Virus record (IMG/VR): IMGVR_UViG_3300032270_001941
Coordinates: 1 to 30,547 of that record
DNA length: 30,547 nucleotides
From: a virus
Taxonomy: Duplodnaviria > Caudoviricetes
Direction: 5' to 3' (one strand)
Below, piece by piece: positions 4,664 to 30,032 of this stretch. The stretch's first letter is position 1, and each line of letters begins with the position of its first letter. The notes beneath the pieces were generated by a model, which had not been told where the DNA came from, ran no database searches, and saw nothing but the letters and a program-made list of their open reading frames with translations. The translations under genes and the position numbers were made by a program.

Positions 4664-4665
4664 CA

Positions 4666-5358: not shown

Positions 5359-5363
5359 TTGAA

Positions 5364-6338: not shown

Positions 6339-6342
6339 GCCT

Positions 6343-7275
6343 TTATTCTAGATACGAATCAATGTGTCTGGATATCGCTTCTAGTGAAATATCTATTCCA
6401 CTACGTTGATGCTTATTCGGCCAAGGCTTGTCGCCTTGTTCTGACTTGTCGTCGCCAGTTGAGTCAAGGACAGGGTTATGGTCTCTTCGTCCATCTTCCG
6501 TATACTTCTCAGCAATCCATGGGAAAGTTACTCCAAATTGATCCCTCTCACCAAGAAGGAATCCATTTGCAAAACGTTTTACTTTTGTTCCAGTTCTATC
6601 GATAAGAAACTTTTCGAAGTTTCCTCTAAGCGGAGTATAGGTCTTGAATCCTTTGCCCATAGGGTTTTCAATGTTTGCATTAGACCATGGTACGTATTCG
6701 TACTGGAATGGGATTCCATCTTCCCTAATATCTGCGGCGTATGCGCCAGTCAGATAGTTCCACAACTCATGCTGTTCTTGTTCTTTAACTGCTCCTGGAG
6801 CATAGTCTGAGTCGTATTTATGCTTGTCGTATCTTCCGTTTGTCAATTCAGAAAATTCATAAGTTGAACCGAAATTGTCAGCAGCGTACTTCTTGGAGAC
6901 CATACCTGGGGTTAGGTCAAGGTTCAACCTATCTATATATGCCTGTATCCCATCCTGGAATTCAGGATAACCATGACAAACAAAATCGTCTACAACTATT
7001 GCCAAGATATTAAAGTCATCGTTTTCTTTGTATTTTTGATTCAACTCTTCAAGCACGCTATGTTGAGGGATATTCCCACATCCTGCAGCAACATTAAAAA
7101 TTAAGGTGACCTTACCTTTTTGTCCTTCAAGTATGTTCTTTTTTTTGCCGTCTGCCGAAGAAACCTGTAGGTCATATATGGATACAGGCAAAACGACTTC
7201 CTCTATCTCCGAATTGAGAACCTGGTTTTTATTCTCCTCAGTAAGGTTTTCTGGGATATATTGTGATTTAGCCAT
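6343..7275 (-). CDS. Glutathione peroxidase-fold protein, atypical and extended
   Basis: KGKVTLIFNVAAGCG (cf. GKV.L.VN.AS.CG) and NFEKFLIDRTG; the FPCNQF motif is replaced by VVDDF. Confidence 0.75.
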   Translation of the reverse strand: MAKSQYIPENLTEENKNQVLNSEIEEVVLPVSIYDLQVSSADGKKKNILEGQKGKVTLIFNVAAGCGNIPQHSVLEELNQKYKENDDFNILAIVVDDFVCHGYPEFQDGIQAYIDRLNLDLTPGMVSKKYAADNFGSTYEFSELTNGRYDKHKYDSDYAPGAVKEQEQHELWNYLTGAYAADIREDGIPFQYEYVPWSNANIENPMGKGFKTYTPLRGNFEKFLIDRTGTKVKRFANGFLLGERDQFGVTFPWIAEKYTEDGRRDHNPVLDSTGDDKSEQGDKPWPNKHQRSGIDISLEAISRHIDSYLE

Positions 7276-7281
7276 GCATAC

Positions 7282-7292
7282 ATATTGTCACA
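7282..7292 (-). promoter_or_regulatory. Putative extended -10 element for a leaderless transcript
   Basis: Minus strand TGTGA-CAATAT, 6 nt, then ATG 7275; no SD. Confidence 0.45.
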
Positions 7293-7308
7293 TTTTTACT
7301 GGATCCAT

Positions 7309-7884
7309 ATGAAGGCTGTTTCGTCTGACGGTTTTAGTTTCTCGGAGTTAGGCATTCCTGACAGCGGTGTCTATCTGGTAAATGGGCTAATGTCCAAATC
7401 CGATACAAGTGAGGCACTTGAGGATATTTTAAGAAATCCAGATTCATATTCGGTTTCAGGATCAGAATCACACGGGTTTGACACTGTAAGAATTACCAGT
7501 GAAAACATAGATTCTGCAAGAAAAATAATCTATAGGCTGGAGCAAGTGTTATCGGAAATTTTTAAACAAGAATTTAAACCTGTGATTTTGCCAGACATCA
7601 GAACTTCTATAAAAGTTCAAAAGACTGGACAGTCTCACCCTATTCACAGCGACTGCCACGAAGATACTGAGTCAGGAGAGGAATCCGGAACAAATGTTGT
7701 TTATTCTGCGATATTTTGTCTTTCAGATGACTACGTCGGTGGCGAAGTCGCATTCCCTAATGAAGGAGTGGAAATAAAGTTAGATGCCGGTTCTGCTCTC
7801 CTGTATCCATCATCTGATCACTGGCACGAAGTAAAGAACGTCTCTGCAGGAACCCGTTATTCTTTTCTTACTTTTTGGGAATAA
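7309..7884 (+). CDS. Prolyl-4-hydroxylase-like Fe(II)/2OG oxygenase
   Basis: HSD...LSDDYVGGEVAF...HEVKNVSAGTRY; ATG 7309 preferred to TTG 7285. Confidence 0.85.
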   Translation: MKAVSSDGFSFSELGIPDSGVYLVNGLMSKSDTSEALEDILRNPDSYSVSGSESHGFDTVRITSENIDSARKIIYRLEQVLSEIFKQEFKPVILPDIRTSIKVQKTGQSHPIHSDCHEDTESGEESGTNVVYSAIFCLSDDYVGGEVAFPNEGVEIKLDAGSALLYPSSDHWHEVKNVSAGTRYSFLTFWE

Positions 7885-7887
7885 GGA

Positions 7888-8628
7888 TTAATTCAATTTA
7901 CCAACAGGCACGTATGCCGATTGAGCGTTCCCAACTTCGGCCCTTAACTGGTTGAATTTTTCATAATGACCAGTTGAATTTTTATCGCCACCTTGACAAA
8001 ACCATTGTAAGTAGGCATATCGTATTCCAGATTTGATTTCCTCGACCTCGTGGCATCCAGCAAAAGACGAAGGGTACATCACCACGGAAAGTGTTTTGCT
8101 CCGCACCGTTATTCCCCATTGTCTAAACCTAAGGTTTCCACCCTCAAAATCATCGTTTAGAAACAAACCAGCAGTTATGGTGTTGAATAAAGCAAATTGA
8201 TTTATTGGATTGCCATCGGAGTCATATGGTATTGCGCTATCAGAATGCGGACCTATGTTTTGACCCTTTTCATATTTTATTAAATATCCGTTTGTTTTCC
8301 ATTTAACAGAATCGATAACACATGGAAAAAGTCTGCAATATTCCACAAGACACAAATAAAGTGATTCATTCATCTTGTCAATAAACAATCTGTCAGAATC
8401 GGGCATGCCGTCGTATATGAGACTCATAAATCGACTCGGAGACGGATTGTCTAGCACATCGAATCTATAGCCTCCATCATTTTCTACAACATCTTCAGAT
8501 ATGTTTTTATAGTTTTGATTTGGAGTGTTTAATTCTGTATTTTTGATAAATGATTCAATTTCAAAGCTAGAAGCATTAATTGCATTATCAAATAGCACGA
8601 CTCCGTTACCAAGATGAGTTGTGTCCAT
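7888..8628 (-). CDS. Prolyl-4-hydroxylase-like Fe(II)/2OG oxygenase
   Basis: HSD...FLNDDFEGGNLRF...HEVEEIKSGIRY; TAATG overlap with the upstream gene places the start at 8628. Confidence 0.85.
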   Translation of the reverse strand: MDTTHLGNGVVLFDNAINASSFEIESFIKNTELNTPNQNYKNISEDVVENDGGYRFDVLDNPSPSRFMSLIYDGMPDSDRLFIDKMNESLYLCLVEYCRLFPCVIDSVKWKTNGYLIKYEKGQNIGPHSDSAIPYDSDGNPINQFALFNTITAGLFLNDDFEGGNLRFRQWGITVRSKTLSVVMYPSSFAGCHEVEEIKSGIRYAYLQWFCQGGDKNSTGHYEKFNQLRAEVGNAQSAYVPVGKLN

Positions 8629-9491
8629 TAGTTCATGCTCTCTACTAATTTCCATGCTGCAGAATCCTTGGAAATGTTTATTGATGATAAATATTCTGCA
8701 AAGTCATTTCGGAGAGATGGCATATAAACGTTGGTTGCTGTCTTTGACAGCTCTGGTTCCTGCACGGGGTCAACAATGTGTTCGTTGACTTCTTTGTTGG
8801 GTGTTCCGTGTGAGTACCAACCAAGATAAGAATATCTACTTCCATATGTAACCGGTGTTACTTCATGCGCAGCAATATAGTTAGAAGGGAACATTAGTAT
8901 GTCACCGGTCCTAGGAGTGTAATCTATGTCTAGATAGTTGAAGTAATGATGACCGCCATCAAAGTCCTCGTTTAAGTAAACAACGCAAGACACAGTGTTT
9001 CTTGTTGCAAGCTGGTCACTTGGTTGTGGATAGCCGTATGCATAGTCTGCACTTGTGTCTGAGTGACTCCCAAGAAACTCGCCACCATATTCTGTTGAAT
9101 ACGAGACAAGATGTCCTTTTACCTTCCACCAGACATTTTTGTAAGCCAATGGAAATAAAACAAAATACTTTAGTAAGTATTCGTCTTTTGATAACTCGAC
9201 AAAATCCAAAAATGCTCGTATCTCTTTATCTTCTGTTCTATGAATCTGTGAACCTCTGCGTGGCATTTTGTTAACGCCATCAGCATCAAATATGTATCCG
9301 CTTTTATTGAGGAAAGCCGGCTCTCCTGTTTCGGGGTTTGTGGTTGGAGTGTACATTTCTGATCGTTCTTTGCTTATTTGGGCTTCAGCAAAATCGGTTA
9401 CCCATTTAGAGTCAAACTCAATGGCACCCCTGAATACAACCACGCCTCCGCCAAGATGCTCTCCCTCAACGTTTTTGTATATAGCGTCCAT
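8628..9491 (-). CDS. Prolyl-4-hydroxylase-like Fe(II)/2OG oxygenase
   Basis: HSD...YLNEDFDGG...HEVTPVTYGSRY. Confidence 0.85.
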   Translation of the reverse strand: MDAIYKNVEGEHLGGGVVVFRGAIEFDSKWVTDFAEAQISKERSEMYTPTTNPETGEPAFLNKSGYIFDADGVNKMPRRGSQIHRTEDKEIRAFLDFVELSKDEYLLKYFVLFPLAYKNVWWKVKGHLVSYSTEYGGEFLGSHSDTSADYAYGYPQPSDQLATRNTVSCVVYLNEDFDGGHHYFNYLDIDYTPRTGDILMFPSNYIAAHEVTPVTYGSRYSYLGWYSHGTPNKEVNEHIVDPVQEPELSKTATNVYMPSLRNDFAEYLSSINISKDSAAWKLVESMN

Positions 9492-9508
9492 GTGTGTATA
9501 ATAACACC
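9492..9508. promoter_or_regulatory. Putative bidirectional leaderless promoter
   Basis: Plus TATAAT 9497-9502, 6 nt, ATG 9509; minus TATTAT 9503-9498, 6 nt, ATG 9491. Confidence 0.7.
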
Positions 9509-9793
9509 ATGGAGCATCTTGAAATAACTAACGATTTAGCCAATAGAGAAGACATGGGTTTCTATATGTGGCAAGACGTAACCCTGCCAAGGTTGATTGA
9601 AGATAAGTACTACACAAAAGGGCGAACCGGAGCAGAGGCTTTGGCTGCATTTTGGAAAGATGTAGCAGAAGGAAAACTGCCAGAATTGATGAAAGAGATA
9701 GACGCACCTGAAGAACTTGGGGTGTGTCATGGTGCCAGTACCCTTGCAAAGCATTTCTTCCAAGCGGGAAAGATTTATCTAGTCAGAGAGTAG
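9509..9793 (+). CDS. Hypothetical protein
   Basis: 94-codon ORF that fills the gap between two minus-strand genes; -10 box upstream of ATG 9509; no motif recognised. Confidence 0.65.
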   Translation: MEHLEITNDLANREDMGFYMWQDVTLPRLIEDKYYTKGRTGAEALAAFWKDVAEGKLPELMKEIDAPEELGVCHGASTLAKHFFQAGKIYLVRE

Positions 9794-10636
9794 TTAGTAA
9801 CCTTTGTGGTCATCTGCTCTATTTCTATAGGCAGATAGCTCGCATGGAATGTTTTCGCCGTACTTCTTGTCTAGGTGGTTTCCAAAATCTTCAATAATTG
9901 TTTCCATCCACCATTGCCCACCAGATTGGTATGTCCCATCTGGGGTCATTGGTGAAATGCCGCTATCGGTTGTTCCTGTTCCCTGAGCAAACCAAGAAAG
10001 ATACGAGTACCTGGAACCACTAGTCACTTGATGGATTTCGTGAGCGCCAAGATAGTTGGCTGGCATCAAGAGTATCGAGCCAGTTTTTGGCTTGATGTCA
10101 ATATCAAAATAAGGGATTGTCATATTTCCGCCAGTAAAAGCGTACGGAACATCATCCTCCGTGCAGTCGTTGAAATAAACAAGTGCAGACAATACGTTCC
10201 TTGTTGCATGTTCTTTCTGTGGGGCCGCACCGTATCTATAGTTAACATCGTTGTCGCAGTGAAAACCCAAGTTTGCACCTTCATCGTAACAGAGAACATG
10301 CCCACCGCTTCTCCACCATAGGCACTGGAGAATTGCAGGGAATATCTCTATATAGTGAAGCAACGCTTCGTAAACAGCTTCGTCACACTTTTGAAAGAAT
10401 GAATGCTCAAGCTCTTGAATCCTTACAGGAGAAGCATTCATCGATTCTATCGAATAGATAAACCCACCCTTATTTACAGCGTGAACTGGTTTTCCATCTT
10501 CACCATATACGATGTCAAAGTTCTCTGCTCGCCACTTGTCTTTTTCTTTTTCAAGATAAGAAATCAGTGATTCTTGTGGAATATCTATTGCGTTCTCAAA
10601 TAGAACAGTTCCACCGCCAAGGTTTATCGGGTTCAT
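9794..10636 (-). CDS. Prolyl-4-hydroxylase-like Fe(II)/2OG oxygenase
   Basis: HCD...YFND...GGNM...HEIHQVTSGSRY; ATGA overlap with the upstream gene. Confidence 0.85.
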   Translation of the reverse strand: MNPINLGGGTVLFENAIDIPQESLISYLEKEKDKWRAENFDIVYGEDGKPVHAVNKGGFIYSIESMNASPVRIQELEHSFFQKCDEAVYEALLHYIEIFPAILQCLWWRSGGHVLCYDEGANLGFHCDNDVNYRYGAAPQKEHATRNVLSALVYFNDCTEDDVPYAFTGGNMTIPYFDIDIKPKTGSILLMPANYLGAHEIHQVTSGSRYSYLSWFAQGTGTTDSGISPMTPDGTYQSGGQWWMETIIEDFGNHLDKKYGENIPCELSAYRNRADDHKGY

Positions 10637-11250
10637 GGGATATCCAGCGCAATCTTTATTGATGACTTTATTGTGTCATGCGAGTCTAGTGTTTCAGATT
10701 CATCGGCAAGAGGAGAAGAGGAAAATCTAAACCTCATAAGTGTTCTGCCATTCTTGCCGATTATGAATTTCTCGTAATTTGATGGCACTCGGTTAATTGT
10801 CTCGTTTGCAAGACTCTGACCCATTTGTGCGCTGTGACTCATATCCGCCATAGTGTCGTTATGTCGTCGTTTCGTATTTCCTTTGACAAAAGTAAAGACC
10901 TGATGCTCGTTGTCACCATTGACTTCAATCTTTTCCGATATTGGAAAAGTGACAAATGGATAATTATATTTAATGAACTTGTGTATTTCTTCGTTCCCAA
11001 GTGGTTCCATGCCGTAGAACTGATTGCACGGAAATCCAACTACTGAAAAATTTTCAAACATCTCGTGTACCCGCTGCAACTCCCACATCTTCTCAGATGT
11101 CCTAGCGTAAGACCAGAGTTTTGAACACTTCGGTTCATAGCCGGCTTTAGTTGCAATGTTTACAAACATACATACCTTCCCCTTAAGGCTTGAGAGCATG
11201 TCTTCTCGTCCGTCAATTGATTTTATGCCGATGTCGTAAACCGATTCCAT
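10633..11250 (-). CDS. Glutathione peroxidase-fold protein lacking the canonical peroxidatic Cys
   Basis: LKGKVCMFVNIATKAG, VVGFPCNQFYGMEP, VTFPISEKIEVNG...H.VF, NYEKFIIGKNG. Confidence 0.85.
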   Translation of the reverse strand: MESVYDIGIKSIDGREDMLSSLKGKVCMFVNIATKAGYEPKCSKLWSYARTSEKMWELQRVHEMFENFSVVGFPCNQFYGMEPLGNEEIHKFIKYNYPFVTFPISEKIEVNGDNEHQVFTFVKGNTKRRHNDTMADMSHSAQMGQSLANETINRVPSNYEKFIIGKNGRTLMRFRFSSSPLADESETLDSHDTIKSSIKIALDIP

Positions 11251-12242
11251 TAGTATTTAGAACCTTCAAAATCGACAACCGTATGTTCACCAACAAAAGC
11301 CTTGCCAAATATTTTGCTTCCATCTATGGTTGCTTTCAATGACACCTGGGTTTCCATTGGTGCGATTATATTGAACCTACCTACAAAGGAGTTGTTGTTG
11401 TATTCAAAATCTTTTGACAAAGAACTCCCACGTGGAGCAGAGATTGTTTTGGCATCCCGATATTCAGATAATTCTGCCGTGTCATCAATCACCTCAAGGG
11501 TGTAATGCTCGGTGCCAAATGGTGTAAAAACATTAAGTTTGTACTTGTCGGGAAATATGTATTGCGGTTCCTCGTAATGAAAAGAACCATTTGATATTGC
11601 CTTTGGGGGGCACTCTTTGTGCCACAGGTTTATAACCAGCACGCTTCGCTTCCCAGTAATTACCGGAGTTGTTCCGTGGACTGTGTGGCCGGCGTCAAAC
11701 ATTACCAACCTGTTTGGCGTACATGCAATCCTTTCGCGCTCTTCAATCGGAGAATCCTGTATTCCCTCAAGACCGTCTTGGGTTCCATTGGGAACAAATG
11801 TTTTATGTATTTCTAGATACCCACCCTCAACACCCGTATTGATGTGCGGATAATAAACAGAACCCCAGTACGGACCATTGAGTATTTTTGTTTCTGCATA
11901 CTCAAAAGTATCCTCATCTAGGTGTGTCGGAAGATTTTGTCCAACTTCAAAAGTCCTAGCCCAATACTCAAAACCTATTACATCCTGCTCTTTGCATGGC
12001 ATGTTTGGTTTCCAGATTGCCTCAATAATCATCTTTGCTGTTGTGTCAGCTCTGCTATTCCACCAACCATCCCAGAACATGTAAGGCGCAAACACCTTTG
12101 CTCCCGGTTCATGGTACTGGTTTAGTCGAGAACCAATACCTTCATCAAACCCCATGGAGTTCGGAAACAGCTTCTTGTCATTTCTTATCAAAGAAAGCAG
12201 ATTTTCGTCTTTTATGTAATCATCAATTACAAGCATGATCAC
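11250..12242 (-). CDS. Fe(II)/2OG oxygenase with extra C-terminal beta-rich domain
   Basis: EYW...HLD...GSVYYP...GGYL...PNRLVMFD...HGTTPVITGKR...INLW, followed by about 100 extra residues. Confidence 0.8.
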   Translation of the reverse strand: MIMLVIDDYIKDENLLSLIRNDKKLFPNSMGFDEGIGSRLNQYHEPGAKVFAPYMFWDGWWNSRADTTAKMIIEAIWKPNMPCKEQDVIGFEYWARTFEVGQNLPTHLDEDTFEYAETKILNGPYWGSVYYPHINTGVEGGYLEIHKTFVPNGTQDGLEGIQDSPIEERERIACTPNRLVMFDAGHTVHGTTPVITGKRSVLVINLWHKECPPKAISNGSFHYEEPQYIFPDKYKLNVFTPFGTEHYTLEVIDDTAELSEYRDAKTISAPRGSSLSKDFEYNNNSFVGRFNIIAPMETQVSLKATIDGSKIFGKAFVGEHTVVDFEGSKY

Positions 12243-13039
12243 ACGGCACTTCCTGAATAATCGGACTTGTAATAAGAATCCCAGTCAATGTTTTGATCTG
12301 GTTTCTTTTTGATTATGGTAAAGCCATAATACAGGGGTACATGGTACATGTAGCAGTCATCCCTGTATTTGATATCCTCGTGAAACTCCCATATACCAGA
12401 TGCATTGGTTTTATCAACATACAGAAAATTAGCATCCGAAACATTTTGCAGTACCAACACTCCACCCGGAGCGAGCATGTCAAGCCAGGCGTTGGTGCCA
12501 ATAAGATAATTTTCTACATCCATATTCCAAAGGGTTATATAGTCAAACTTATTTTTAGATTCATCTAATTCTAAAACATCAAGCACGTCGTAATCGAAGT
12601 TGTCAAATGTTCCATAAATTGGCTTCATGAATTTTTCAAACAATAAAAGATGTTTGTTATTTAGAGTAGTTACTTTTGAGTTGAATCTTTTTTGTGCATC
12701 ATAGATGCGGTTGCACTCTAAATCCAAAGATGAAACAAGTATTGATTTTGGTGATATAAGGCTGAATATCATTTCTTGGAACACTGGAGGAATCCACATT
12801 GATGTTTCAGTTGTCTCCGGAGGATCCACAAATGGGAACCATCCACCTATTTCAAGGTCTCCGCCTCCGGTAGCCACAATTCTTGGATCAGCTTCAGATT
12901 CTCCAAATATAAAATGAATTATTTTACTTGCGCATTTCCTTGATACATCTTTCAGGAAATTATGGTTATCCATTCCGGATGCAGAAGTTTTAGAAAATCC
13001 AACCGTTCTATCGCCTTTAAACTTTTCAGCTTTTGCCAT
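12239..13039 (-). CDS. Divergent class I SAM-dependent methyltransferase-like protein
   Basis: KFDYI...LDMLAPGGVLVLQN resembles motifs II/III; no clear GxGxG motif I. ATG 13039 preferred. Confidence 0.5.
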   Translation of the reverse strand: MAKAEKFKGDRTVGFSKTSASGMDNHNFLKDVSRKCASKIIHFIFGESEADPRIVATGGGDLEIGGWFPFVDPPETTETSMWIPPVFQEMIFSLISPKSILVSSLDLECNRIYDAQKRFNSKVTTLNNKHLLLFEKFMKPIYGTFDNFDYDVLDVLELDESKNKFDYITLWNMDVENYLIGTNAWLDMLAPGGVLVLQNVSDANFLYVDKTNASGIWEFHEDIKYRDDCYMYHVPLYYGFTIIKKKPDQNIDWDSYYKSDYSGSAV

Positions 13040-13328
13040 GATCCACCATATATTTCGCAATGTGTCTATTGTGATGAAAGCGTCTTGCCATTCTGCTCAA
13101 TATAAGATTTTGTTTTTTGACAAACTCGTCTGAAGCGATGTACGTCTGGGTTCCTTCTCCGCGAGTGGTTAGTTCATGCTTGTACTTGTACGTATTCCGA
13201 ATTGCGTTAATTGCGTCATCAATTGAAGCATTTTGCAATTCTTCATCCGTAAATCCAAGGATGTACAACACAGACATAAAGCCCACATCGTTGTATCTGT
13301 AATCGGAATGAGGATCGTACTTATTCAT
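13026..13328 (-). CDS. Hypothetical protein
   Basis: ORF tiles with both neighbours; ATG 13328 overlaps the end of the upstream gene. Confidence 0.6.
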   Translation of the reverse strand: MNKYDPHSDYRYNDVGFMSVLYILGFTDEELQNASIDDAINAIRNTYKYKHELTTRGEGTQTYIASDEFVKKQNLILSRMARRFHHNRHIAKYMVDHGKS

Positions 13329-13503
13329 CTTCGCCTTCATCAACAAACTGAGAATAAAAAAAACAATCAACGGTTCCATGGCCCCCGCTTATTATCCACG
13401 AACCAGATTTTTCGTCCCAGGTAAGTGTTTCGTTATTGATCGCTTTTACGTCAGTTGGTTCTGAGCCAAGTAACTGACTTTCGCTTGGAATCTCATTTGA
13501 CAT
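13321..13503 (-). CDS. Small acidic hypothetical protein (60 aa)
   Basis: Tiles between neighbours with short overlaps at both ends. Confidence 0.55.
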   Translation of the reverse strand: MSNEIPSESQLLGSEPTDVKAINNETLTWDEKSGSWIISGGHGTVDCFFYSQFVDEGEDE

Positions 13504-13705
13504 TTTTCAATTTCTCCAAGCTTTTCAATTCAGACAGGAGACACCTGTATGATTCGTACGGCAACTCTGATGGATCAAATGGGTTTATGGAATCTGAAGT
13601 TATATCGCTTGGATTGACGCCAAATATCATGGAAAGCGTTTCAATTGAACTCTCAAGAAACACAATTGCTTTCTGTCTAGCAATAGCTCTATTGTTTTCA
13701 TCCAT
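13493..13705 (-). CDS. Small hypothetical protein
   Basis: ATG 13705 overlaps the end of the DUF6065-like gene; about 70 aa. Confidence 0.6.
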   Translation of the reverse strand: MDENNRAIARQKAIVFLESSIETLSMIFGVNPSDITSDSINPFDPSELPYESYRCLLSELKSLEKLKNVK

Positions 13706-14402
13706 TATTGGGTTCCTGAAGTTTTGGTAATCCTGTAGTCGTTGGCCCAATTCTAACACCATCTGCATCAAGACCAGTTCTTATGCCTTTTGTCCAAGTC
13801 CAAGGCTTCTCTTGGTTATTCTTCATCTTCAAGTCCCCATATTTCTGACGAGAATCCATGAGTTCCTTATCGTCCCACATGTTTTTTACTTCGAAATCAA
13901 CGTTCTCCAACACGGTGCTGTCAAACATTGTGAAGAACATAAATGGCATTCCTTCAGGAAAAACTGTTTTGCCTGTTTTTGTTAGTTTCCAGTTCATTTG
14001 AAACTCATCAGGCCACCAACTGCTTGGGATGATTGCTGATAGCGGAACCGCTCCATCTAATACGTAATTTGGAGAACCACCAATCCATGTTTCGTATCCT
14101 GGCTCTGTTCCGAATATCCACCCAGTTGAAAATGAGACCATGCCTATTATTCCACCATAGGCAATATCTCTGCCCTCGAATTGCCCACCTTCAAGAATCT
14201 TTGCATTTGTATTTCCGCCATCCCACTCGACAATGACATCATGCGGAAGAATCAACTCCCAACCGTAGACATTTGCGTATGTCATTGGCAGGCATTGATA
14301 AGCATGTTTCTTGTATGTTTGATCCATCCATTCTCTCTGGATCCTGGATTGTCTTATGTCAACTGTTTTTTGTGTTGATTTTGTGAGAGTAAATTTTGGC
14401 AT
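13698..14402 (-). CDS. DUF6065-like protein
   Basis: R.WMD...HAYQCLPM..AN..GWEL..P...W.GG, G.PN...G..PL..II...W...F.MNW; ATG 14402 preferred to TTG 14438. Confidence 0.7.
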   Translation of the reverse strand: MPKFTLTKSTQKTVDIRQSRIQREWMDQTYKKHAYQCLPMTYANVYGWELILPHDVIVEWDGGNTNAKILEGGQFEGRDIAYGGIIGMVSFSTGWIFGTEPGYETWIGGSPNYVLDGAVPLSAIIPSSWWPDEFQMNWKLTKTGKTVFPEGMPFMFFTMFDSTVLENVDFEVKNMWDDKELMDSRQKYGDLKMKNNQEKPWTWTKGIRTGLDADGVRIGPTTTGLPKLQEPNNG

Positions 14403-14418
14403 TTTAAATCCATTCAAA

Positions 14419-14907
14419 TTAAGTTTTTTGAAATACAAAACTTGTCATATAGTAGCGAGCTACGTCGGCGTCAAATGAAGATACAAAATGGCTAATATCA
14501 CCGCTATGTACTACTAGTTTTCCAGGTTTTGGTTTTACTGCAAGTTTTTGTTTTGGGTAAACTAAATAACCGCCAATGAAATTATCATTCAAATACAAAA
14601 TAGTTGAAAATTTTATACTTGAATTCCCATCCGTGTCTGCATGCAGGTCAAGACCATTGCCGTGAAGCGCTCTTTGTACTGCGTTAAATCTTCTCAGATA
14701 ATATTTCTCCTGGTTAAACAATGATTCAATTTTGTCATAAACAGAATTTAGCAAATCGTTTTCGCTGAAATAGTGTTCAGTTATTTCTGGTCTATCCCCA
14801 CGCCATTTTTTGCCACTAGTCTCCATGTGGTCAATCAAGACGCGACAATATTCTTCGCTCAAAAATCCTTCTAATTCAAGAATTCCGTCAAGCCAATCAA
14901 TGCGCAC
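14419..14907 (-). CDS. Short prolyl-4-hydroxylase-like Fe(II)/2OG oxygenase
   Basis: HAD...ILYLNDNFIGG.L.YP...KPKPG...HFV...RY. Confidence 0.8.
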   Translation of the reverse strand: MRIDWLDGILELEGFLSEEYCRVLIDHMETSGKKWRGDRPEITEHYFSENDLLNSVYDKIESLFNQEKYYLRRFNAVQRALHGNGLDLHADTDGNSSIKFSTILYLNDNFIGGYLVYPKQKLAVKPKPGKLVVHSGDISHFVSSFDADVARYYMTSFVFQKT

Positions 14908-15558: not shown

Positions 15559-16120
15559 GTTTTTGTTTTTGCGCTTCCGCTATATCCAGAACCACATATT
15601 TTGCCGGTGGTTGACATTCATTGATTACCCAGAAGTCGTCAGTATGAAGACGGGCTACATCATTGGACTTGTCTCCACTTAAGTACATGGTTCTTGGTTC
15701 AAAGTCAGCAAATGCCGGATTGTCTTCATCTGGAATATTTTTGTATTCGCTTAACGGCCAGCCCCTTATTGCTCCATCGACATAGTCAACTTCTGAATTA
15801 TTAAATGCTTCGATAATCCAATCTATGTCGTTTTCACATAACCCGTTGAAATCAACGTAGATACCACGGTACTTGGTGTTTATCGCCATTTCGGCGTAAG
15901 TTCTCCAGTCACCATCTTTTATTATACAAAAAACATAGTTGCAAACATCAAAAAGTTTTTCAGGATTTACAACATCTATAACGCCTGCTTCAATAGCGTT
16001 TTTCTTTGTTATTTCAGACCGCGATTCAGAAGCATGGAAAACTTCGTGTCCGGAATTAATCAGTGAGTGGGCAAGAGTTGCTCCCATTTTACCCATTGAT
16101 ATAACTCCGACGCTTGCCAT
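15545..16120 (-). CDS. NAD(P)-binding Rossmann protein (6PGD/beta-hydroxyacid dehydrogenase N-terminal domain only)
   Basis: VGVISMGKMG..LA..L...GHEV, IYVDFN, YVDGAIRG.P, MYLSG; 191 aa with no helical C-terminal domain. Confidence 0.7.
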   Translation of the reverse strand: MASVGVISMGKMGATLAHSLINSGHEVFHASESRSEITKKNAIEAGVIDVVNPEKLFDVCNYVFCIIKDGDWRTYAEMAINTKYRGIYVDFNGLCENDIDWIIEAFNNSEVDYVDGAIRGWPLSEYKNIPDEDNPAFADFEPRTMYLSGDKSNDVARLHTDDFWVINECQPPAKYVVLDIAEAQKQKLNQS

Positions 16121-16773
16121 TAGTAACCCTGTGATTGTCCGTACGTGTAGTGCTCTGGCTTGTGGGTTCTGTCGTTGTAGTCAAACATTGTCACCGCCGC
16201 ATACTTCACTCCGCTTGTAATTGGCTTTGACGCATGAGCATAGATGAATGTCGAAGGAAACAAAACGATGTCGCCATACTCCGGCTTTAGAACTATGTCC
16301 AAATACGGAAACCACAATTCTCCACCCTCGTAGTTATCGTTTAAGTACATCACCGAAGAAACTGTGCAATTGTAAGAAAAACCGTGGTCAGTATGAACGG
16401 CAAAATGTTGACCAACTCCATACTTAACGTAGTTGATCGCTTCCATAAATTCCATATTTATGTTGTATCTACTCTGGTAGTCAACTAAACATTTTCTAAG
16501 ACCATTATTGGTGTCTTCGTAAATTGATTTAATTTCTGAAAATTGTGGAGGGCAGTGCCGCAGGTGGTCAACTCCGATTTTGCAGTCAACACAATCTCTG
16601 TACTCGGGCATTTTTACCGAGTCTCCGACAAGTGCTTCCATCCACATATACGGAGGAGTCTGGCTGTCCCCTATGGTTGACTCAAGCCGATTAACCAGGT
16701 CAAGTTCTTTTGGCAATGCATTCTTGTAAAGAATTATTCCCAACATTGGATTTCCGATATAGACGCTGTTCAT
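16120..16773 (-). CDS. Prolyl-4-hydroxylase-like Fe(II)/2OG oxygenase
   Basis: HTD...YLNDNYEGGELWF...HASKPITSGVKY. Confidence 0.88.
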   Translation of the reverse strand: MNSVYIGNPMLGIILYKNALPKELDLVNRLESTIGDSQTPPYMWMEALVGDSVKMPEYRDCVDCKIGVDHLRHCPPQFSEIKSIYEDTNNGLRKCLVDYQSRYNINMEFMEAINYVKYGVGQHFAVHTDHGFSYNCTVSSVMYLNDNYEGGELWFPYLDIVLKPEYGDIVLFPSTFIYAHASKPITSGVKYAAVTMFDYNDRTHKPEHYTYGQSQGY

Positions 16774-16863: not shown

Positions 16864-18309
16864 TCATGCGACAATGTTATTACATACTGGGGCATCTTTG
16901 TGTAGTGCATTCCACATTAAAACATCGTATTTATCATTAATCAACGGCTGGCCTTTAATGTTTAGGCTTGTATTTAGTAGCACTGGAATACCAGAGTGCT
17001 TTTCCCACTCGATGAGCAGGTCGTATAGCCCTGGATGCTGTGCTCTATTTACTGTTTGAACTCTAGATGTTCCGTCTTCATGAACAACGGATGGTATTAG
17101 ATTTGGTTTTTTGCATTTAATCGCGTACTGCATGTATGGGCTTGGTCTGTCAATGTCAAACCATTTTGATGCTTTTTCTTCTATGACAACTGGGGCAAAT
17201 GGCCTGAACATCTCCCTGCCCTTGATCGTATTCACCAAGTCTTTTACAGATTTGTCACGAGGGTCAGCAAATATGCTTCGGTTGCCAAGTGCCCTTGGGC
17301 CATATTCAGCCCTGCCAGACGCCACTGCTGTAACTTTCCTGTTGCTCAACTCGTACATTGCTGAACTAATTGGATATTTACTCTGGATATCTGTTCCGAT
17401 GTATGGTCCGGTCCAATTTAGATGTTTACCGTAAAGAGCTGCCGCAGCGCCAAGGCTGCTTCCTGCGTCTCCGGGATTTGGCATTATCCATACCTGTTCG
17501 TAGATACCAAGCAATCTGGTGTTTGCGGAACAGTTGAGTGCACACCCACCCATAAATACAAGATTCTTTTTGTTTGATTTCTTTTTTGCAAACGACATAA
17601 ATTCTATTAGTCGCTGTTCGTACACCGCCTGAACAGCTGCAGCAATATCAAACTTATTCTCTTCTGTGACTTTTGGTGCGAATTTTTTTACTCCATAATG
17701 AAAGTTTTCGGTCTGTTTTTTGATTGAAGGGAAAAGCGAAGAGATCTCGCTAAAGTACCTTCCTGGGTTACCGTAAGCAGCCATTCCCATCATGATGTAC
17801 TCTTCCTCGTTCGGTTTGAGTCCAACTAGCTGGGTAAATGCCGTATAGAACAATCCAAAACTAAATGGGTATCCATCAGAGTAGATTTGCTTTAACTTAT
17901 TGCCCTCACCAACCCAGATGCTTGATGTCTCAAATTCCCCAATTGCGTCAAGAACAACAACTACCGCGTCGTCAAAGTTGCTAGTAAAATATCCTGCGCA
18001 AGCATGTGAGTAATGATGCTTGAATGTGGTTATCTTCGAGTTTGAGAACATCTCCTTGACTTCGTCAAATGAAGACCCAAAGCCACCAAAAAAACTTTTT
18101 CTGATTGCCTTCAATGCCGGCTTCTCGTAATAGGCTATCTTTTCCGGTTCCCCAAAAGATAATGCCTCGGAAAGCAAATCATCGTTTATGTTGCTATCGT
18201 TTTTTTTCTTACTGTAACGCTCTGAGTGTCCAGCAAAAAGAATCTCTCCATTTTCAATTACTGACAATGAAGCGTCATGAGAGCAGGAATTAATTCCCAG
18301 TATCAGCAT
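16864..18309 (-). CDS. Carbamoyltransferase, NodU/CmcH/TobZ family
   Basis: HDAS...ERYS..K, HH.SHA...YF.S.F, DAIGE, EY..MGMAAYG, GGCALN, P.PGDAGSSLGAA, EYGPRALGNRSI.ADPR, K.RE.FRPFAP, H.DGTSRVQTV, LLNTSLN..GQP. Confidence 0.95.
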   Translation of the reverse strand: MLILGINSCSHDASLSVIENGEILFAGHSERYSKKKNDSNINDDLLSEALSFGEPEKIAYYEKPALKAIRKSFFGGFGSSFDEVKEMFSNSKITTFKHHYSHACAGYFTSNFDDAVVVVLDAIGEFETSSIWVGEGNKLKQIYSDGYPFSFGLFYTAFTQLVGLKPNEEEYIMMGMAAYGNPGRYFSEISSLFPSIKKQTENFHYGVKKFAPKVTEENKFDIAAAVQAVYEQRLIEFMSFAKKKSNKKNLVFMGGCALNCSANTRLLGIYEQVWIMPNPGDAGSSLGAAAALYGKHLNWTGPYIGTDIQSKYPISSAMYELSNRKVTAVASGRAEYGPRALGNRSIFADPRDKSVKDLVNTIKGREMFRPFAPVVIEEKASKWFDIDRPSPYMQYAIKCKKPNLIPSVVHEDGTSRVQTVNRAQHPGLYDLLIEWEKHSGIPVLLNTSLNIKGQPLINDKYDVLMWNALHKDAPVCNNIVA

Positions 18310-18976
18310 GTTGTGTCTTTGGTGTAAAGAATGCTTGCATCATGTACCTTGATCCAGATGTAACAGGATTTATTCCATGGATCATTTCTTCGTCCCAAAC
18401 GTTGCTTAAAAGGATTAGAGAGTTTGGCATTGGCTTGTACTGCAGGCCGAGAGCTGGAAATATATTTTCCCCACCTTCGTAATCATCGTTGAGATAATAG
18501 ACGGATGCGTAGTGCGTGAAAGCTCCTGGTGTTTCCATAAAAACACCGTCACAGTGAAGATGCATACTCCCGCCAGTATTTATCTTTGTTATGGCATTTC
18601 CAAACTCGTAAATTACTTCTTCATTCCAAACATCTTTAACTGCATCAACCGTCATGTCCATGCACTTAGAAACAATTCCATTTATGTACTCGTCATCTGG
18701 CCAGAACACCCAGAAACCAAGAGCTTCTGTTGGCGGATAACCAATCTGCTCAATTTCGCCAGATTCTATTTTTCTTACTTCTTCGTCTGAAAGTATGTAA
18801 TTTTTTCTGTACTTTACACCTTTAAGTCTGGTGTGCTCATAGTCCCTCCACCGCAATCCATGATTGGTTGGAAATGGTTTGAATTGTGAATCATTTGCAA
18901 GCGCACAAGACTTTAGTGCTTCCCATTCATCTGTTGGGAGAAAGTCTTTATAAATCATTATTCTTGGTGTTGTCAT
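18290..18976 (-). CDS. Prolyl-4-hydroxylase-like Fe(II)/2OG oxygenase
   Basis: HCD...YYLNDDYEGGE..FP...HGINPVTSGSRY; ATG 18976 follows GGAG and the upstream stop. Confidence 0.85.
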   Translation of the reverse strand: MTTPRIMIYKDFLPTDEWEALKSCALANDSQFKPFPTNHGLRWRDYEHTRLKGVKYRKNYILSDEEVRKIESGEIEQIGYPPTEALGFWVFWPDDEYINGIVSKCMDMTVDAVKDVWNEEVIYEFGNAITKINTGGSMHLHCDGVFMETPGAFTHYASVYYLNDDYEGGENIFPALGLQYKPMPNSLILLSNVWDEEMIHGINPVTSGSRYMMQAFFTPKTQHADTGN

Positions 18977-18977
18977 G

Positions 18978-19643
18978 TCACTCCATAAAACTTTCAACTG
19001 TATAAAATGCTGGAGAAGTAAACCGTTCTCCAGCAGTAACCATTTTTACTCCATGCAGATAATTAATATCTCCAGGATGAAGAACGGCTAGACCTGGCTC
19101 TGGCTTTATAACGATGTCGTGCTCGGGGTAATAAAGTTCGCCGCCTTGAAAATCATCGTTGTAATAGAAAAGCGAATTGATGTCATAGTCGATAAACGGG
19201 TTCGGTGATCCATCAGGCATTTGTTTATCAGCATGAGGGCGTTGCTCTATCCCTGGAAACCATCTAATCAAACATGGTGGACGTTTGCTGAGTTTGCATT
19301 TGAAAACTTCACCAGCGGCAACAGCCATTTTGTCTATGTAAAAGTCAATTAAATCGTATATTTGCGGATCAAGTCTTTTTATTATGTCGTGAGTACATTG
19401 CCTGTTGTTCCAATATGAAGCATCGTAAGTGCAGGTTCCGTCTTCTGCATATTCGTTTTCATCTTTTTGGTTTGCCCACTCAGTGATGTTTCTTGCAAAT
19501 TTAACTATTCTTGCAACATCATCTTTTTCAATGAAGTTCTTATATACGCGTATATTCCAGGCGGTAGTTCCAAATGTCCCAGGTGGCACTGGCCATGGTG
19601 ATTCGTTACTCGATAACATAGAGGAATCCATTTTGCTCTTCAC
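18978..19643 (-). CDS. Prolyl-4-hydroxylase-like Fe(II)/2OG oxygenase
   Basis: HAD...YYNDDFQGGELYYP...HGVKMVTAGERF; start could be 19631 instead. Confidence 0.85.
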   Translation of the reverse strand: MKSKMDSSMLSSNESPWPVPPGTFGTTAWNIRVYKNFIEKDDVARIVKFARNITEWANQKDENEYAEDGTCTYDASYWNNRQCTHDIIKRLDPQIYDLIDFYIDKMAVAAGEVFKCKLSKRPPCLIRWFPGIEQRPHADKQMPDGSPNPFIDYDINSLFYYNDDFQGGELYYPEHDIVIKPEPGLAVLHPGDINYLHGVKMVTAGERFTSPAFYTVESFME

Positions 19644-20340
19644 AAATATTTTTCAGAATGTTTACGTCTTCACTCAAAAGAGAGTTTTCCGTAAAATGGC
19701 CAACCAGGGCATGCCTTGTGGTCTGTTCATTTTTTGGTACTGAGCCGCTATGAACGGCAAGACCATTCCAGATTATTGCGTCACCAGCTTTGCCCTCAAA
19801 TAGAAATGATTCTATTGATTTTTTATCAACCATATCGAGATAGTACTCGTAGCAGACCTTGTCGTTTTCTTTGCAATTTTCATTATTAATTATCGACTCG
19901 TCTACCTGCCATTTGTGTGACCCAGGAATAACTTCGAAAGGTCCGGCGTCATGATCAACATCTTCAAGACAGACTGATATGCCAATAAAATTATTTGGAT
20001 TTTGGGGGTTTTGTGTGTACGGCCCAAAATAGTCTCTATGCCACGGAATTCTTGATGAGGAGTATCTAGCTTCTGACAGTCGTAATGCGTATCTAATCCC
20101 TGTAAGTTTAAGAAAGTCCCTAAAGGTACTACAAAGAAGAATGTTTCTAATCTCAATATTGTTTTTGTATTCTTGTCGACTTGGAAGGTACGTTCTGTCC
20201 GGTGAGTCGCCTAGAAAATCTTCTTTTGAATATTTATTTTTGTATTTTTCTATTAAGTCTTCTGATACAGCAGCGCTGAGTACAACAAATCCATTTTCTA
20301 TAAATTCTTCATATTGTTGCGCAAGAACGGATTCGCCCAT
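19606..20340 (-). CDS. PhyH (phytanoyl-CoA dioxygenase)-family Fe(II)/2OG oxygenase
   Basis: PWHRD...LEDV...GPFEVIPGSH...KAGDAIIW.G...HSG...R. Confidence 0.88.
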   Translation of the reverse strand: MGESVLAQQYEEFIENGFVVLSAAVSEDLIEKYKNKYSKEDFLGDSPDRTYLPSRQEYKNNIEIRNILLCSTFRDFLKLTGIRYALRLSEARYSSSRIPWHRDYFGPYTQNPQNPNNFIGISVCLEDVDHDAGPFEVIPGSHKWQVDESIINNENCKENDKVCYEYYLDMVDKKSIESFLFEGKAGDAIIWNGLAVHSGSVPKNEQTTRHALVGHFTENSLLSEDVNILKNICEEQNGFLYVIE

Positions 20341-20346: not shown

Positions 20347-20352
20347 ATACTA
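20347..20352 (-). promoter_or_regulatory. Putative -10 element overlapping the upstream stop codon, leaderless
   Basis: TAGTAT, 6 nt, ATG 20340; no SD. Confidence 0.45.
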
Positions 20353-21384
20353 CTTGAACCTAGGAGGGAAGAACGGTGGGAAGAACGGTGGAAAGAATGG
20401 AGGGAAGAATGGCGGGAAGAACGGCGGGAAATAAGGAGGGAAGAATGGAGGGAAGAACGGCGGAAAGTAAGGAGGAAAGAACGGTGGGAAAAATGGCGGA
20501 AAATAAGGTGGGAAAAACGGCGGGAAGAATGGTGGGAAATACGGAGGAGCAACAGGAGTTACTGAGTTTGACGCCACAGAAGTTTGAGAACCATAGACAG
20601 AAGACGCCCTTACGGTGAATGTGTAGGCGGTGCCATTAGAAAGGCCTGTAACGGTGATAGGAGACGCTCCAGAGGCTTGAATGTTCCCTGGCGATGAAAT
20701 GGCCGTATAAGTAACTGAACCGGTTCCTGTGGCTCCTGCGGTGTACGTGACGGTAGCTTGAGCATTTCCGCCAGTCGCGGTTCCGATCGTTGGGGCTGCA
20801 GGTCGCGTTCCAGCTGTTACCGAGTTTGAAGACGCAGATGTTGCTTCTCCAAAAATAGTTGAAGCCTTGACAGTAAATGTATAAGCCTGACCAGCAGTGA
20901 GACCAGTTGCCGTAATAGGACTAGTTCCAGTGAAAGTCAATGAACCAGGCGTAGAGGTCGCTGTATAAGTAACGGTCGGGCTTGTTCCTGTTGGTCCAGG
21001 TGTAAAAGGTACGCTAATGGCATTGTTGGTATCCACAACAATTGCTGCAGTTCCTATTGTTGGCGCGGTTGGACCAGCACCCATTACGAGTTCTGCGCTC
21101 ACACCAGAAACAGCTTCAACTCCACTTGAAGAAACTGCAAAAACCCTAAAGGTTCTTGTTGTCCCTTGGGTCATTCCGCTTACAACAATTGGACTGCTAT
21201 TTCCTGTTGCGAACTGACCAGTGTCAGACTCGGCTCTGTAGGAAACAGTTCCTTTTCCGGCATAAGAGCCGGGGGTGAAGTAGACGCTTGCAGATGTTCC
21301 GGTTGCAAGCAGTGGGGTACCAATCGTTGGCGCAGACGGTTCTTTTCCGCCAGAGTCGATTTGATTGTTGCTTGAAACGGCCAT
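20350..21384 (-). CDS. Triple-FN3 protein with (PPFF/PPYF)n C-terminal tail; putative virion appendage tip
   Basis: Three P.APTIGT...V.FT...Y.A.S......SPI...GL..G..YTF.V.A modules, then 16 PPxF units and a terminal Lys. Confidence 0.88.
   Translation of the reverse strand: MAVSSNNQIDSGGKEPSAPTIGTPLLATGTSASVYFTPGSYAGKGTVSYRAESDTGQFATGNSSPIVVSGMTQGTTRTFRVFAVSSSGVEAVSGVSAELVMGAGPTAPTIGTAAIVVDTNNAISVPFTPGPTGTSPTVTYTATSTPGSLTFTGTSPITATGLTAGQAYTFTVKASTIFGEATSASSNSVTAGTRPAAPTIGTATGGNAQATVTYTAGATGTGSVTYTAISSPGNIQASGASPITVTGLSNGTAYTFTVRASSVYGSQTSVASNSVTPVAPPYFPPFFPPFFPPYFPPFFPPFFPPYFPPFFPPFFPPYFPPFFPPFFPPFFPPFFPPFFPPRFK
20356..20547 (-). repeat. 12-bp coding repeat, PPxF x16, with 36-bp superperiod
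   Basis: (PPYF-PPFF-PPFF)x4, (PPFF)x3, PPRF; synonymous codons vary between units. Confidence 0.95.
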
Positions 21385-21387: not shown

Positions 21388-22167
21388 TTATGAAGCTGAA
21401 AGGTCTCCCATTACCACCCATGTATCTGATGCTCTTTTAAGAAGAGTAACACCTGACCACTGGGCTCGCATGTAGACACCAGGGGTTGCGTTTACAGTCA
21501 CTCCACCGCCAGCGAGAATTCTTGTTTTCCCTGTTCCAACTTGTAGAACTTGAATTTGCGTTCCAACCGGGAAAGCAACAACAGAGTTGGCTGGAACTGT
21601 CAAGTCGTTTGCAGAGCCGACATTCATTTCAATAATCTTATTTTTGTCAGCCAATACAAGTGTGTAACTTGCCGTCTGAGCATTTGTGATTATGTCAGCA
21701 ATTTTTCCTTGAGCAATATTAGCCGTAGAACTGATATCTCCATCAACAATTGTGGAGTCAGCAATCATCGATGATGTGACCGTCCCTGAGTCATCAAGAG
21801 TGACTGCAGTACCGGCAATTTTAGTTTTTGCAATTGCTGCTGAAGCATTTATGTCAGCATTAACAATCACCCCAGATGCGATAGATGTAACACCGGTGTT
21901 ACTTATCGTCACATCTCCAGTTTGATCTACTGCTGTTGCGATGCCAGAACTATTAAATACAATTATCTGTCCGGCAGCAGCTGGATATATTTTTGACAAT
22001 CCAACCGTTCCGTCAACAAGAGAAGAACCACTTATCGAGTCTGCTGTATACATTGCTGTTGGAATGGTTACAAGAACCCAACCAGAGCCGTTGTATGTCC
22101 ATGTCTTTCCTGCACTTACGTGCTGGTCTCCGGATAGCGCTCCTGATGGAAAGTCAATTGCTGGCAT
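21388..22167 (-). CDS. Short fibre/adapter virion protein
   Basis: N-terminal FP...G....GKTWTYNG..W motif; IV.ADI...A.IA..KI shaft repeats; C-terminal YTL...D...TVP....AF..GT.I...Q.G.G...W...GDL domain. Confidence 0.75.
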   Translation of the reverse strand: MPAIDFPSGALSGDQHVSAGKTWTYNGSGWVLVTIPTAMYTADSISGSSLVDGTVGLSKIYPAAAGQIIVFNSSGIATAVDQTGDVTISNTGVTSIASGVIVNADINASAAIAKTKIAGTAVTLDDSGTVTSSMIADSTIVDGDISSTANIAQGKIADIITNAQTASYTLVLADKNKIIEMNVGSANDLTVPANSVVAFPVGTQIQVLQVGTGKTRILAGGGVTVNATPGVYMRAQWSGVTLLKRASDTWVVMGDLSAS

Positions 22168-28985: not shown

Positions 28986-30032
28986 CTAGAGACATACTGG
29001 AGGGTTGTATGAGCTCTTCGGATCTGGGAAGCATGATCCGCAGCATGGTTTTCCGTCGCAATTCGGACACACAGGGAATCCTGGGTCTACAGGGAAACCT
29101 GGGTCTACAGGGAAACCTGGGTCTACTGGTGCAGGAGTAACATTTGTAGTTTCTTCTATATAAACTGAATTAGAGTTAGCCCAACCCGGTCTTGAAACGT
29201 ACACATATGTATAACGGTTAACGTTTTCCCCAAGACCAAACCAACCGTGGCACGAGCCATAAACGTCATTAGGAATTTCGTTATATCCATAATAGTTGTA
29301 TGTTGCATCACCACCATTGCCAGGCTGTGCAAGGTTGTCGGTAAAGTAGTTGTCGTAACACCATGGGATGGAGTTAGTTGTTTCTGCAATATCTGAAACA
29401 ATTGGAGTTGGAACTTTACCGAACAATGGAGTAACCGAACTTGAGGAAGACGAGTAGCTTCCAGTTCCGATGCCGTTTATGGCATTGACTCTGAATACAT
29501 AGGCGGTTCCGTTAGTCAACCCAGTGACCGTTACCGAGGTGGCTGTTGACGCAGCGCGACTAAATGTAGTCCATGTTGAACCGCTATTTGACGAGTACTG
29601 AACCGTGTAATCGCTGATTGCCGAACCAACAGAGGCTGGAGCAGACCAAGAAACAGAAGCAGTTGTATTTCCATATGTTGATGGAAGACTAACTGTTGGA
29701 GCTGCTGGGGCAGAAGGAGCAGAACCAAGAACAAGCGAAGCGGAAGATGTCGACGCTAGTGATTCAGCAGCACTTGTTGACTCAATCGCAACAGCAGAGA
29801 ATGTGTAAGTTTGTCCTGGGGTGAGTCCGGCCAGCATGGATACCGTTGTGGAACTAGTTGTTGCAGTCACACCATTGCTCGCAGTTACGCGATATGTAAC
29901 TATCCCAGACTTGCCCTTATATCCAGTATGAGTGATTGTTATGTCTGCTGTTCCACCAGCACCTACAACGCTAGTTATTGCGCTTGGTGGGTCAATGAAC
30001 TTTCCGCCACTGGCTTGATTGCCCGGAATCAC
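28986..30032 (-). CDS. Double-FN3 protein with FPVDPG repeat tail and six-Cys C-terminus
   Basis: Two FN3 modules (...GLTPGQTYTFSAVA; VSWSAP...GLTNGTAYVFRVNA.N..G), then PVDPGFPVDPGFPVDPGFPV-CPNCDGKPCCGSC...C; GTGA overlap with the upstream gene. Confidence 0.85.
   Translation of the reverse strand: MIPGNQASGGKFIDPPSAITSVVGAGGTADITITHTGYKGKSGIVTYRVTASNGVTATTSSTTVSMLAGLTPGQTYTFSAVAIESTSAAESLASTSSASLVLGSAPSAPAAPTVSLPSTYGNTTASVSWSAPASVGSAISDYTVQYSSNSGSTWTTFSRAASTATSVTVTGLTNGTAYVFRVNAINGIGTGSYSSSSSSVTPLFGKVPTPIVSDIAETTNSIPWCYDNYFTDNLAQPGNGGDATYNYYGYNEIPNDVYGSCHGWFGLGENVNRYTYVYVSRPGWANSNSVYIEETTNVTPAPVDPGFPVDPGFPVDPGFPVCPNCDGKPCCGSCFPDPKSSYNPPVCL
29013..29089 (-). repeat. Right arm of long-range inverted repeat (partner 2462..2538)
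   Basis: 76/77 identity by manual alignment. Confidence 0.9.
29070..29129 (-). repeat. 18-bp coding tandem repeat, FPVDPG about 3.3 units
   Basis: Read directly; same unit as 2401..2481. Confidence 0.92.

Follow-up and report, generated by a model that had tools for sequence, protein, structure and literature searches.

Genes and features at the locus

The window, by which we mean the whole stretch of 30,547 nucleotides that was analysed, is a 30.5-kb virus fragment (IMG/VR record IMGVR_UViG_3300032270_001941). The feature of interest is a small gene next to a fibre gene. Its product, here called the carrier, ends in a long run of PPxF units (the tail), and an array of oxygenase-like genes lies downstream. 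Coordinates are collected in Table 1, together with those of some side features in the window and in other loci (numbers beginning with L).

Table 1. Features of the window and of related loci
Feature	Position	Strand	Remarks
Fibre gene	21388..22167	minus	directly upstream of the carrier gene, 3 bases apart; PHROG 8780 minor tail protein
Fibre tip-like domain, conserved	21391-21699	minus	last ~103 residues of the fibre gene
Carrier gene, 344 aa	20350..21384	minus	N-terminal D-S-GGK motif, three FN3-like repeats, tail
(PPxF)16-K C-terminal tail	20350..20547	minus	x = Y in units 1, 4, 7 and 10, R in unit 16, otherwise F
PhyH-family dioxygenase	19606..20340	minus	variable passenger
OX0	18978..19643	minus	core oxygenase family
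2OG-Fe(II) oxygenase	18290..18997	minus	less constant; 18/61 forward loci at E<1e-10
NodU-like carbamoyltransferase	16864..18309	minus	
OX2	16120..16773	minus	core oxygenase family
DUF6065	13698..14438	minus	core partner; dUTPase-like fold, invariant HAYxCxP motif
Rest of array	3332..14907	both	nine more 2OG-Fe(II) oxygenase-like and two glutathione-peroxidase-like genes
Glutathione-peroxidase-like genes	6343-7275; 10633-11250		
Second cassette, FN3 protein	28986..30032	minus	(DPGFPV)n and Cys-rich end; directly behind a fibre (30029 onward) that has the same tip domain
Third cassette, FN3 protein	1768..2565	plus	(FPVDPG)n and Cys-rich end; then GNAT-like gene, DUF6171-cluster gene, oxygenases
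Small DUF6171-cluster gene	3047-3331	plus	follows Cys-rich end
Unnamed cluster c44 gene	L267:617-856		follows Cys-rich end
12-base repeat	26760-27020		encodes (G-N/D-V/L-T)n inside a 1107-aa fibre
Hint-like or Peptidase_S74 domains after tails	L046:7509-8750; L324:5892-6860; L025:1082-1762		
Hexamer-grammar loci	L398, L411, L412, L414, L420, L436, L437, L444, L455, L456, L460		
Second DUF6065-like family	L065:6110-6886		clade-2 loci
Capsid protein of a tail-bearing phage	L041:108-1169		

Three FN3 repeats can be recognized in the carrier by eye, and the Pfam fn3 family matches it with an E-value of 1.9e-9; the first repeat has conserved GGK-x-P and GK motifs of its own. For the tip-like domain of the fibre, a search of PDB sequences gave no match, and a lead to PF25692 (Phage_depo_C) comes from 11% of one Atlas cluster. 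A promoter search in the window returned 22 sites where 20.4 were expected, which is chance level.

The array contains 12 Pfam 2OG-FeII_Oxy_3 matches (two of them below the curated cut-off) in addition to PhyH, and these fall into several clusters. A preliminary description of the locus listed PhyH-like, two P4H-like and carbamoyltransferase genes immediately downstream of the tail, and those are indeed the neighbours. In all, 153 Pfam scans were made (33 window proteins, 30 cluster representatives and 90 further entries, many of them without any family), and among the window proteins and neighbours so covered no tyrosinase, aromatic amino acid (pterin-dependent) hydroxylase, halogenase, protease or cyclase family was found. 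Glutathione-peroxidase-like genes, present in 27 of 81 loci, could protect or reduce iron enzymes.

Sequence and reading frame of the tail

The tail is in frame with the ORF at 20350-21384 and runs (PPYF PPFF PPFF)x4, PPFF x3, PPRF, K, stop, for a total of 65 residues and 16 PPxF units. This is exactly the count, the Tyr in every third unit over four cycles and the PPRFK end given in the preliminary description. Its further point, that the peptide rather than the DNA is conserved, agrees with the codons of the window array: variation falls on third positions, the first two being fixed except at the F/Y site, and as DNA 14 of the 16 units differ. Shuffling the window 100 times never produced a PP[FY]F run longer than one unit. 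Third positions are also protected in an antisense (GGKN)n frame, but stops interrupt that frame in the window copy and in 57 of 112 arrays, which identifies PPxF as the coding frame. Neither antisense frame, GGKN or REEW, is accepted as the true gene.

The number of repeats was to be confirmed with reads. A contig from an independent study covers 20426-20895, which holds most of the array, with six differences and no gap. Two contigs from the sequencing run that may be the source of the record cover 20000-20473 and 20497-21500 with zero differences, the 23 bases between them being unbridged in the pieces listed. One RNA run compared with the window does not cover the tail, a result that has no bearing on its expression. 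A relative (L002) likewise encodes a 344-aa protein with 16 units, its FN3 part 78% identical to that of the window. An assembly artefact is ruled out by this homologue, the codon pattern and the contig from the independent sample.

The tail is apolar, with a Kyte-Doolittle mean of 0.17 and a best 19-residue window of 0.72. These values are low and rule out a membrane anchor, and the earlier wording ‘extremely hydrophobic’ was too strong. No protein family matched the tail polymer, taken as an all-Pro/aromatic chain of at least 60 residues, and an Atlas search with the tail as the query gave no usable match.

Distribution and repeat grammars

The preliminary description recommended a pattern search in viral proteins. 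Searching IMG/VR for at least five consecutive units gives about 720 stored stretches (an estimate), of which at least 120 were listed and 80 were available with flanks; the repeat is common, then, and not peculiar to the window. A four-unit pattern finds 14 stretches among 185,579 prokaryote species genomes. Six of them encode a small carrier with a tail as in the phages and lie on contigs of metagenome bins (MAGs), while the other eight lack a carrier and look like shadow frames. PASTA-like Pro-Phe proteins occur on contigs of unrelated MAGs (L122, L125, L127, L128, L130 and L134), which are probably phage contigs binned with bacteria.

Of 1410 units, 1342 have F, Y, H or W at position x and none has Leu, even though a Leu codon is one base away from Phe. 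The peptide is under selection for proline and aromatic residues. The grammar itself can differ. DUF6065 clade-2 loci (see below) have a mixed PFF/PPFF grammar; in the hexamer-grammar loci of Table 1, FF-(A/S/G)-PP-(G/S/V/N/T) stands in place of PPxF ahead of the same downstream enzymes; and units of three, four and six residues mix freely. The protein ends within 8 residues after the tail in 59 of 152 distinct tails. Endings include PPxFK, a Cys-rich peptide, a Hint domain or a Peptidase_S74 domain; self-cleavage at the Hint-like and Peptidase_S74 domains would leave the tail C-terminal, and L025 would then end in PPAFK, resembling natural tail ends. In L326, L329 and L346, a (GV)n run separates the Pro/Phe tail from the Cys-rich end.

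Such a repeat might also be read as a RiPP-like precursor, the tail being cut to short Pro/Phe peptides with an action on the host, perhaps after cyclisation. The cores are short and repeated, Hint domains follow some tails, and PPFF occurs in the fungal and plant cyclic peptides antamanide and cyclolinopeptide A. The scanned neighbours, however, include no dedicated protease or cyclase families, the carriers consist of virion-type domains (FN3 or PASTA) paired with fibres, and the free mixing of unit lengths also speaks against a precursor, a role that we regard as highly improbable.

In open-licence PMC and bioRxiv text, the PFFPPFF and PPYFPPFF motifs and DUF6065 were not found in print; for PPFFPP together with phage, cathelicidins and other antimicrobial peptides were among the matches listed. 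The tail is a real and common feature, apparently undescribed.

Tyrosine period and polymer shape

The Tyr pattern was at first taken as a conserved feature. A clear period of three of this type, with Tyr or His, is seen in just 15 of 99 distinct tails, on both carrier types, though the spacing of three between non-Phe units is enriched (81 versus 57.3 +/- 7.1 in shuffles); spacings of two and four are depleted and a spacing of one is enriched, all counted on the same 99 tails, which are not independent of each other. In the window, third-position identity peaks at a lag of three units (0.50, versus 0.39-0.40 at lags 1 and 2), and the Tyr period there can therefore be explained by a 36-base duplication.

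Conversion of Tyr and Phe to DOPA, as in a mussel-type adhesive, had been called conceivable. Among the alternatives to Phe at x, Tyr ranks first (449 of 2308 units), and the enriched spacing of three would suit this chemistry, but many tails are Tyr-free and neither a tyrosinase nor a pterin-dependent hydroxylase was seen in the neighbours scanned. Moreover, 2OG oxygenases usually attack aliphatic carbon, and the DOPA reading has very little to recommend it.

Twelve residues would make four turns if the chain formed a polyproline II helix. A simple rod of this kind is doubtful: Pro-Pro, aromatic-Pro and Pro-aromatic steps favour cis-proline according to PMC12862571, and the title of a paper cited there has aromatics in Pro-rich sequences strongly disfavouring PPII.

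Linkage of the tail with OX0, OX2 and DUF6065

Linkage can be counted from either end. Starting from the listed tail matches, 80 forward loci were obtained, and 61 of these extend at least 4 kb downstream. Among the 61, OX2 is found in 48, DUF6065 in 43, OX0 in 42 and PhyH in 2; OX2 is absent nearby in 13 to 14. The carbamoyltransferase occurs in none of 298 other loci and, as the sole case in 299, is probably a recent insertion. PhyH and the carbamoyltransferase, which had been stressed as partners of the tail, are ruled out as core partners by these counts. Five tails without nearby enzymes were checked: two belong to records with the array elsewhere, and three are on fragments (13-50% complete) without DUF6065.

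Starting instead from DUF6065, a tail lies upstream of the clade-1 gene in 62 of 80 loci, and in 41 of the 43 with at least 5 kb upstream. For clade 2, about 25% identical to clade 1, the values are 66 of 75 (5 of 80 were dropped, the gene having been missed by the motif) and 66 of the 67 with at least 2 kb upstream. A third, pattern-drawn sample of DUF6065 loci was chosen without regard to the tail and was not ranked by likeness to the window. Here a strict tail is present in 55 of 80 loci, or 40 of the 53 with at least 5 kb upstream; 12 of the remaining 13 carry a variant Pro/Phe tail if a looser rule, set post hoc, is applied; that rule fires in 4 of 58 downstream regions used as a control, and the total is then 52 of 53. 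All of these counts are by contig and not dereplicated to species. The proposed link of the tail to oxygenase genes is supported from both directions.

On the fibre side, the tip domain of about 100 residues directly precedes 104 of 126 distinct tail genes. Carriers across the loci are FN3 or PASTA proteins; a search for homologues gave, for the most part, generic FN3 proteins. Divergent phage lineages share the gene order fibre, tail protein, OX0/OX2, DUF6065.

Conserved gene order can by itself produce tight linkage. In one alternative, the tail stays unmodified and has a structural or adhesive role at the fibre tip; the array has other targets, such as further fibre proteins, small molecules or glycans, and adjoins the tail solely because this phage group has preserved its gene order. 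Against it, the linkage persists in the two divergent DUF6065 clades, where carriers, fibre lengths and most other neighbours vary. Nor would a purely structural spacer explain those tails that end within 8 residues, since they space nothing. We consider this alternative possible though rather unlikely; further points in its favour are given in the following sections.

The second and third cassettes

Besides the main tail protein, the window holds two more FN3 proteins with repeats and Cys-rich ends (Table 1). They are 63% identical, on opposite strands, about 26 kb apart, and have different fibre C-terminal domains ahead of them. The DPGFPV pattern itself found nothing in IMG/VR. Relatives of the second cassette have a PFF, PAPT, PPPS or poly-Pro repeat at the equivalent position (24 loci; 7 of the 10 distinct cases displayed), so that proline is the common element of these swaps. 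Such Pro-rich repeats look interchangeable as spacers ahead of Cys-rich ends, and second cassettes can sit far from the oxygenase array; both observations suit an unmodified tail.

Downstream gene content varies with the tail protein. A DUF6171-cluster or c44 gene accompanies Cys-rich ends in 23 of 24 cases, versus 0 of 32 otherwise; corrected for kinship, this corresponds to 9-10 changes on the tree, with five independent pairs that nearly all agree and none that oppose (p 0.06). The DUF6171-cluster/c44 gene is a candidate partner for the Cys-rich peptide. PFF triplets go with a second OX2 paralogue in 42 of 42 cases, versus 1 of 7 otherwise (43 of 43 versus 5 of 13 without the truncation filter), and this covariation is not significant after kinship correction (p 0.5; about two informative independent pairs).

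Fold and active site of the core enzymes

A structure model of OX2 has a pLDDT of 91, and its top Foldseek matches are 2jig, 3gze, 5c5t and PHD2 (the algal P4H is included, and the chlorovirus enzyme vCPH is third-best). These are peptide prolyl hydroxylases, one of them the algal enzyme with (Ser-Pro)5; the scores are modest, with TM about 0.6-0.7 and 14-19% identity. OX2 shares with P4Hs the double-stranded beta-helix and the HxD...H iron triad, in which H127, D129 and H180 are invariant, and the basic 2OG residue after the distal His (K190, also invariant, aligned to GEKW of the Bacillus anthracis P4H). Invariance of the triad and of the 2OG Lys is as expected of an active enzyme. For OX0, the best match among PDB sequences is prolyl 3-hydroxylase 1 (E 4.6e-4).

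As described in PMC4396695, all P4Hs have a Tyr three residues before the first His (Tyr140 in CrP4H, Tyr310 in PHD2), and all P3Hs and P4Hs have an Arg at the active-site opening (Arg161 and Arg322, respectively). By motif-based mapping, the position of the Tyr is Phe in 98 of 106 OX2 and Gln in 160 of 165 OX0 sequences, and none of the 11 window oxygenases caught by the motif search has the Tyr. By motif-based alignment, the Arg is replaced by Cys in the window OX2 and by Tyr in the window OX0; Arg does occur at the aligned site, or beside it, in some other members of the array. The label ‘P4H-like’ given to these genes at the outset therefore holds for the fold and fails at both residues. 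OX0 and OX2 resemble peptide prolyl hydroxylases in fold, and we do not class them as P4Hs because the Tyr and Arg are missing. The lack of this signature is another point for an unmodified tail. If the tail is hydroxylated after all, the reaction would probably have a new regiochemistry.

DUF6065 has a dUTPase-like fold (best match E 3e-4) with an invariant C49, and gave no match to PDB sequences. No cultured phage was found with this DUF6065, and OX2 matches in cultured phages, mostly cyanophages, are below 60% identity. Clade-2 loci also encode a second DUF6065-like family, to which proteins of haloarchaeal tailed viruses are weakly related (24-31% identity).

The core proteins could also be folding or solubility aids, DUF6065 and the oxygenase folds binding an aggregation-prone, cis-proline-prone polymer during assembly. 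Assembly helpers are commonly encoded beside fibre genes, as the Syn9 annotation also illustrates, and DUF6065 has a dUTPase fold. The preference of Pro/aromatic steps for cis-proline (PMC12862571) fits as well. Invariant iron and 2OG ligands in OX2 are instead those of an active enzyme, and we think a folding role unlikely.

Proposed role of the tail and its host

We slightly favour a reading in which the tail is part of the fibre tip of the virion and is hydroxylated, with Pro as the first target, by core 2OG-Fe(II) oxygenases that the phage itself encodes. The carrier would dock on the C-terminal domain of the fibre through its first FN3 repeat, OX0 and OX2 would act on the tail during virion assembly, and DUF6065 may assist. 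The finished tail would present an aromatic, partly hydroxylated surface that aids adhesion of the phage to its host.

Arguing for hydroxylation are the reciprocal and forward linkage to OX0, OX2 and DUF6065, the placement of most tail genes after a fibre tip domain on FN3 or PASTA carriers, the likeness of OX2 to peptide prolyl hydroxylases together with the PBCV-1 precedent (see below), and a downstream gene content that tracks the tail protein, as with Cys-rich ends and DUF6171/c44. It is weakened by the absence of the P4H Tyr from the 11 window oxygenases, and of the Arg from OX2 as well, and by the modest fold scores. Thirteen oxygenases exceed the needs of one simple tail, several forward loci have no OX2 nearby, and the covariation tests are not significant after kinship correction.

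The host is probably an actinobacterium. WhiB is encoded in 4 of 5 related records (71-210 kb), and WhiB points to actinobacterial hosts (PMC10611076). Where a habitat is named for the sequencing runs, it is freshwater or river. The capsid protein of one tail-bearing phage (L041) is 38-45% identical to those of large phages like Bacillus phage 0305phi8-36.

A wider and more tentative proposal, which we put forward at lower confidence, is that a widespread group of large actinophages of fresh water may build a new ribosomal Pro/aromatic polymer (PFF, PPxF, xPPxFF) on its fibre tips, with dedicated non-canonical hydroxylases that are each tuned to one repeat grammar and possibly act on Phe too. 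The polymer would then serve as a post-translational code for attachment to the host, and would supply phage oxygenase arrays with the substrate that they have long lacked. Phage arrays of 2OG-Fe(II) oxygenases have been on record since 2010 (PMC2938197), with no substrate demonstrated. The tail is a candidate substrate short enough to be synthesised, and with two specific enzymes named, the question can be put to a single mass-spectrometry assay.

Comparison with known systems

In T-even phages, gp38 is a small fibre-tip adhesin with Gly-rich repeats whose gene follows that of the distal fibre. The tail protein is likewise small and separately encoded directly after a fibre, a placement shared by the 104 of 126 tail genes noted above; its N-terminus is conserved, and its C-terminus is variable and of low complexity. 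The differences are the FN3 or PASTA carrier and a repeat rich in Pro and Phe rather than Gly. Plant extensins and algal hydroxyproline-rich glycoproteins have Pro-rich repeats with periodic Tyr that are hydroxylase substrates. Relatives of the second cassette have extensin-like PPPS repeats, whereas extensins are eukaryotic, polar and glycosylated. Antamanide and cyclolinopeptide A share the PPFF motif, but are eukaryotic, short and excised.

The P4H of chlorovirus PBCV-1 (PDB 5c5t) hydroxylates Pro-Ala-Pro-Lys repeats (PMC3634087), and is thus another virus-encoded enzyme with a peptide hydroxylase fold and a Pro-rich repeat as substrate. It differs in being the single enzyme of a eukaryotic virus, acting on a non-aromatic repeat; the phage OX2 lacks the P4H Tyr and Arg.

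Closest is Synechococcus phage Syn9, with a tandem dioxygenase array at gp41-gp54 for which Iyer et al. 2010 (PMC2938197) proposed secondary-metabolite synthesis; collagen-like substrates are proposed there for other dioxygenase neighbourhoods. Upstream, Syn9 encodes tryptophan halogenases and Gly-rich proteins, and it lacks the Pro-Phe repeat; such arrays therefore do not require this substrate, again a point for an unmodified tail. Neither tryptophan halogenases nor a MINA/JmjC member, both Syn9 traits, were found in the window or the scanned neighbour clusters. In common, many tandem 2OG dioxygenases of several families are present in the window as in Syn9, where about ten follow the fibre genes and small fibre-associated proteins, and Syn9 also encodes a dUTPase-fold protein with a conserved cysteine (PMC2938197), as does the window in DUF6065.
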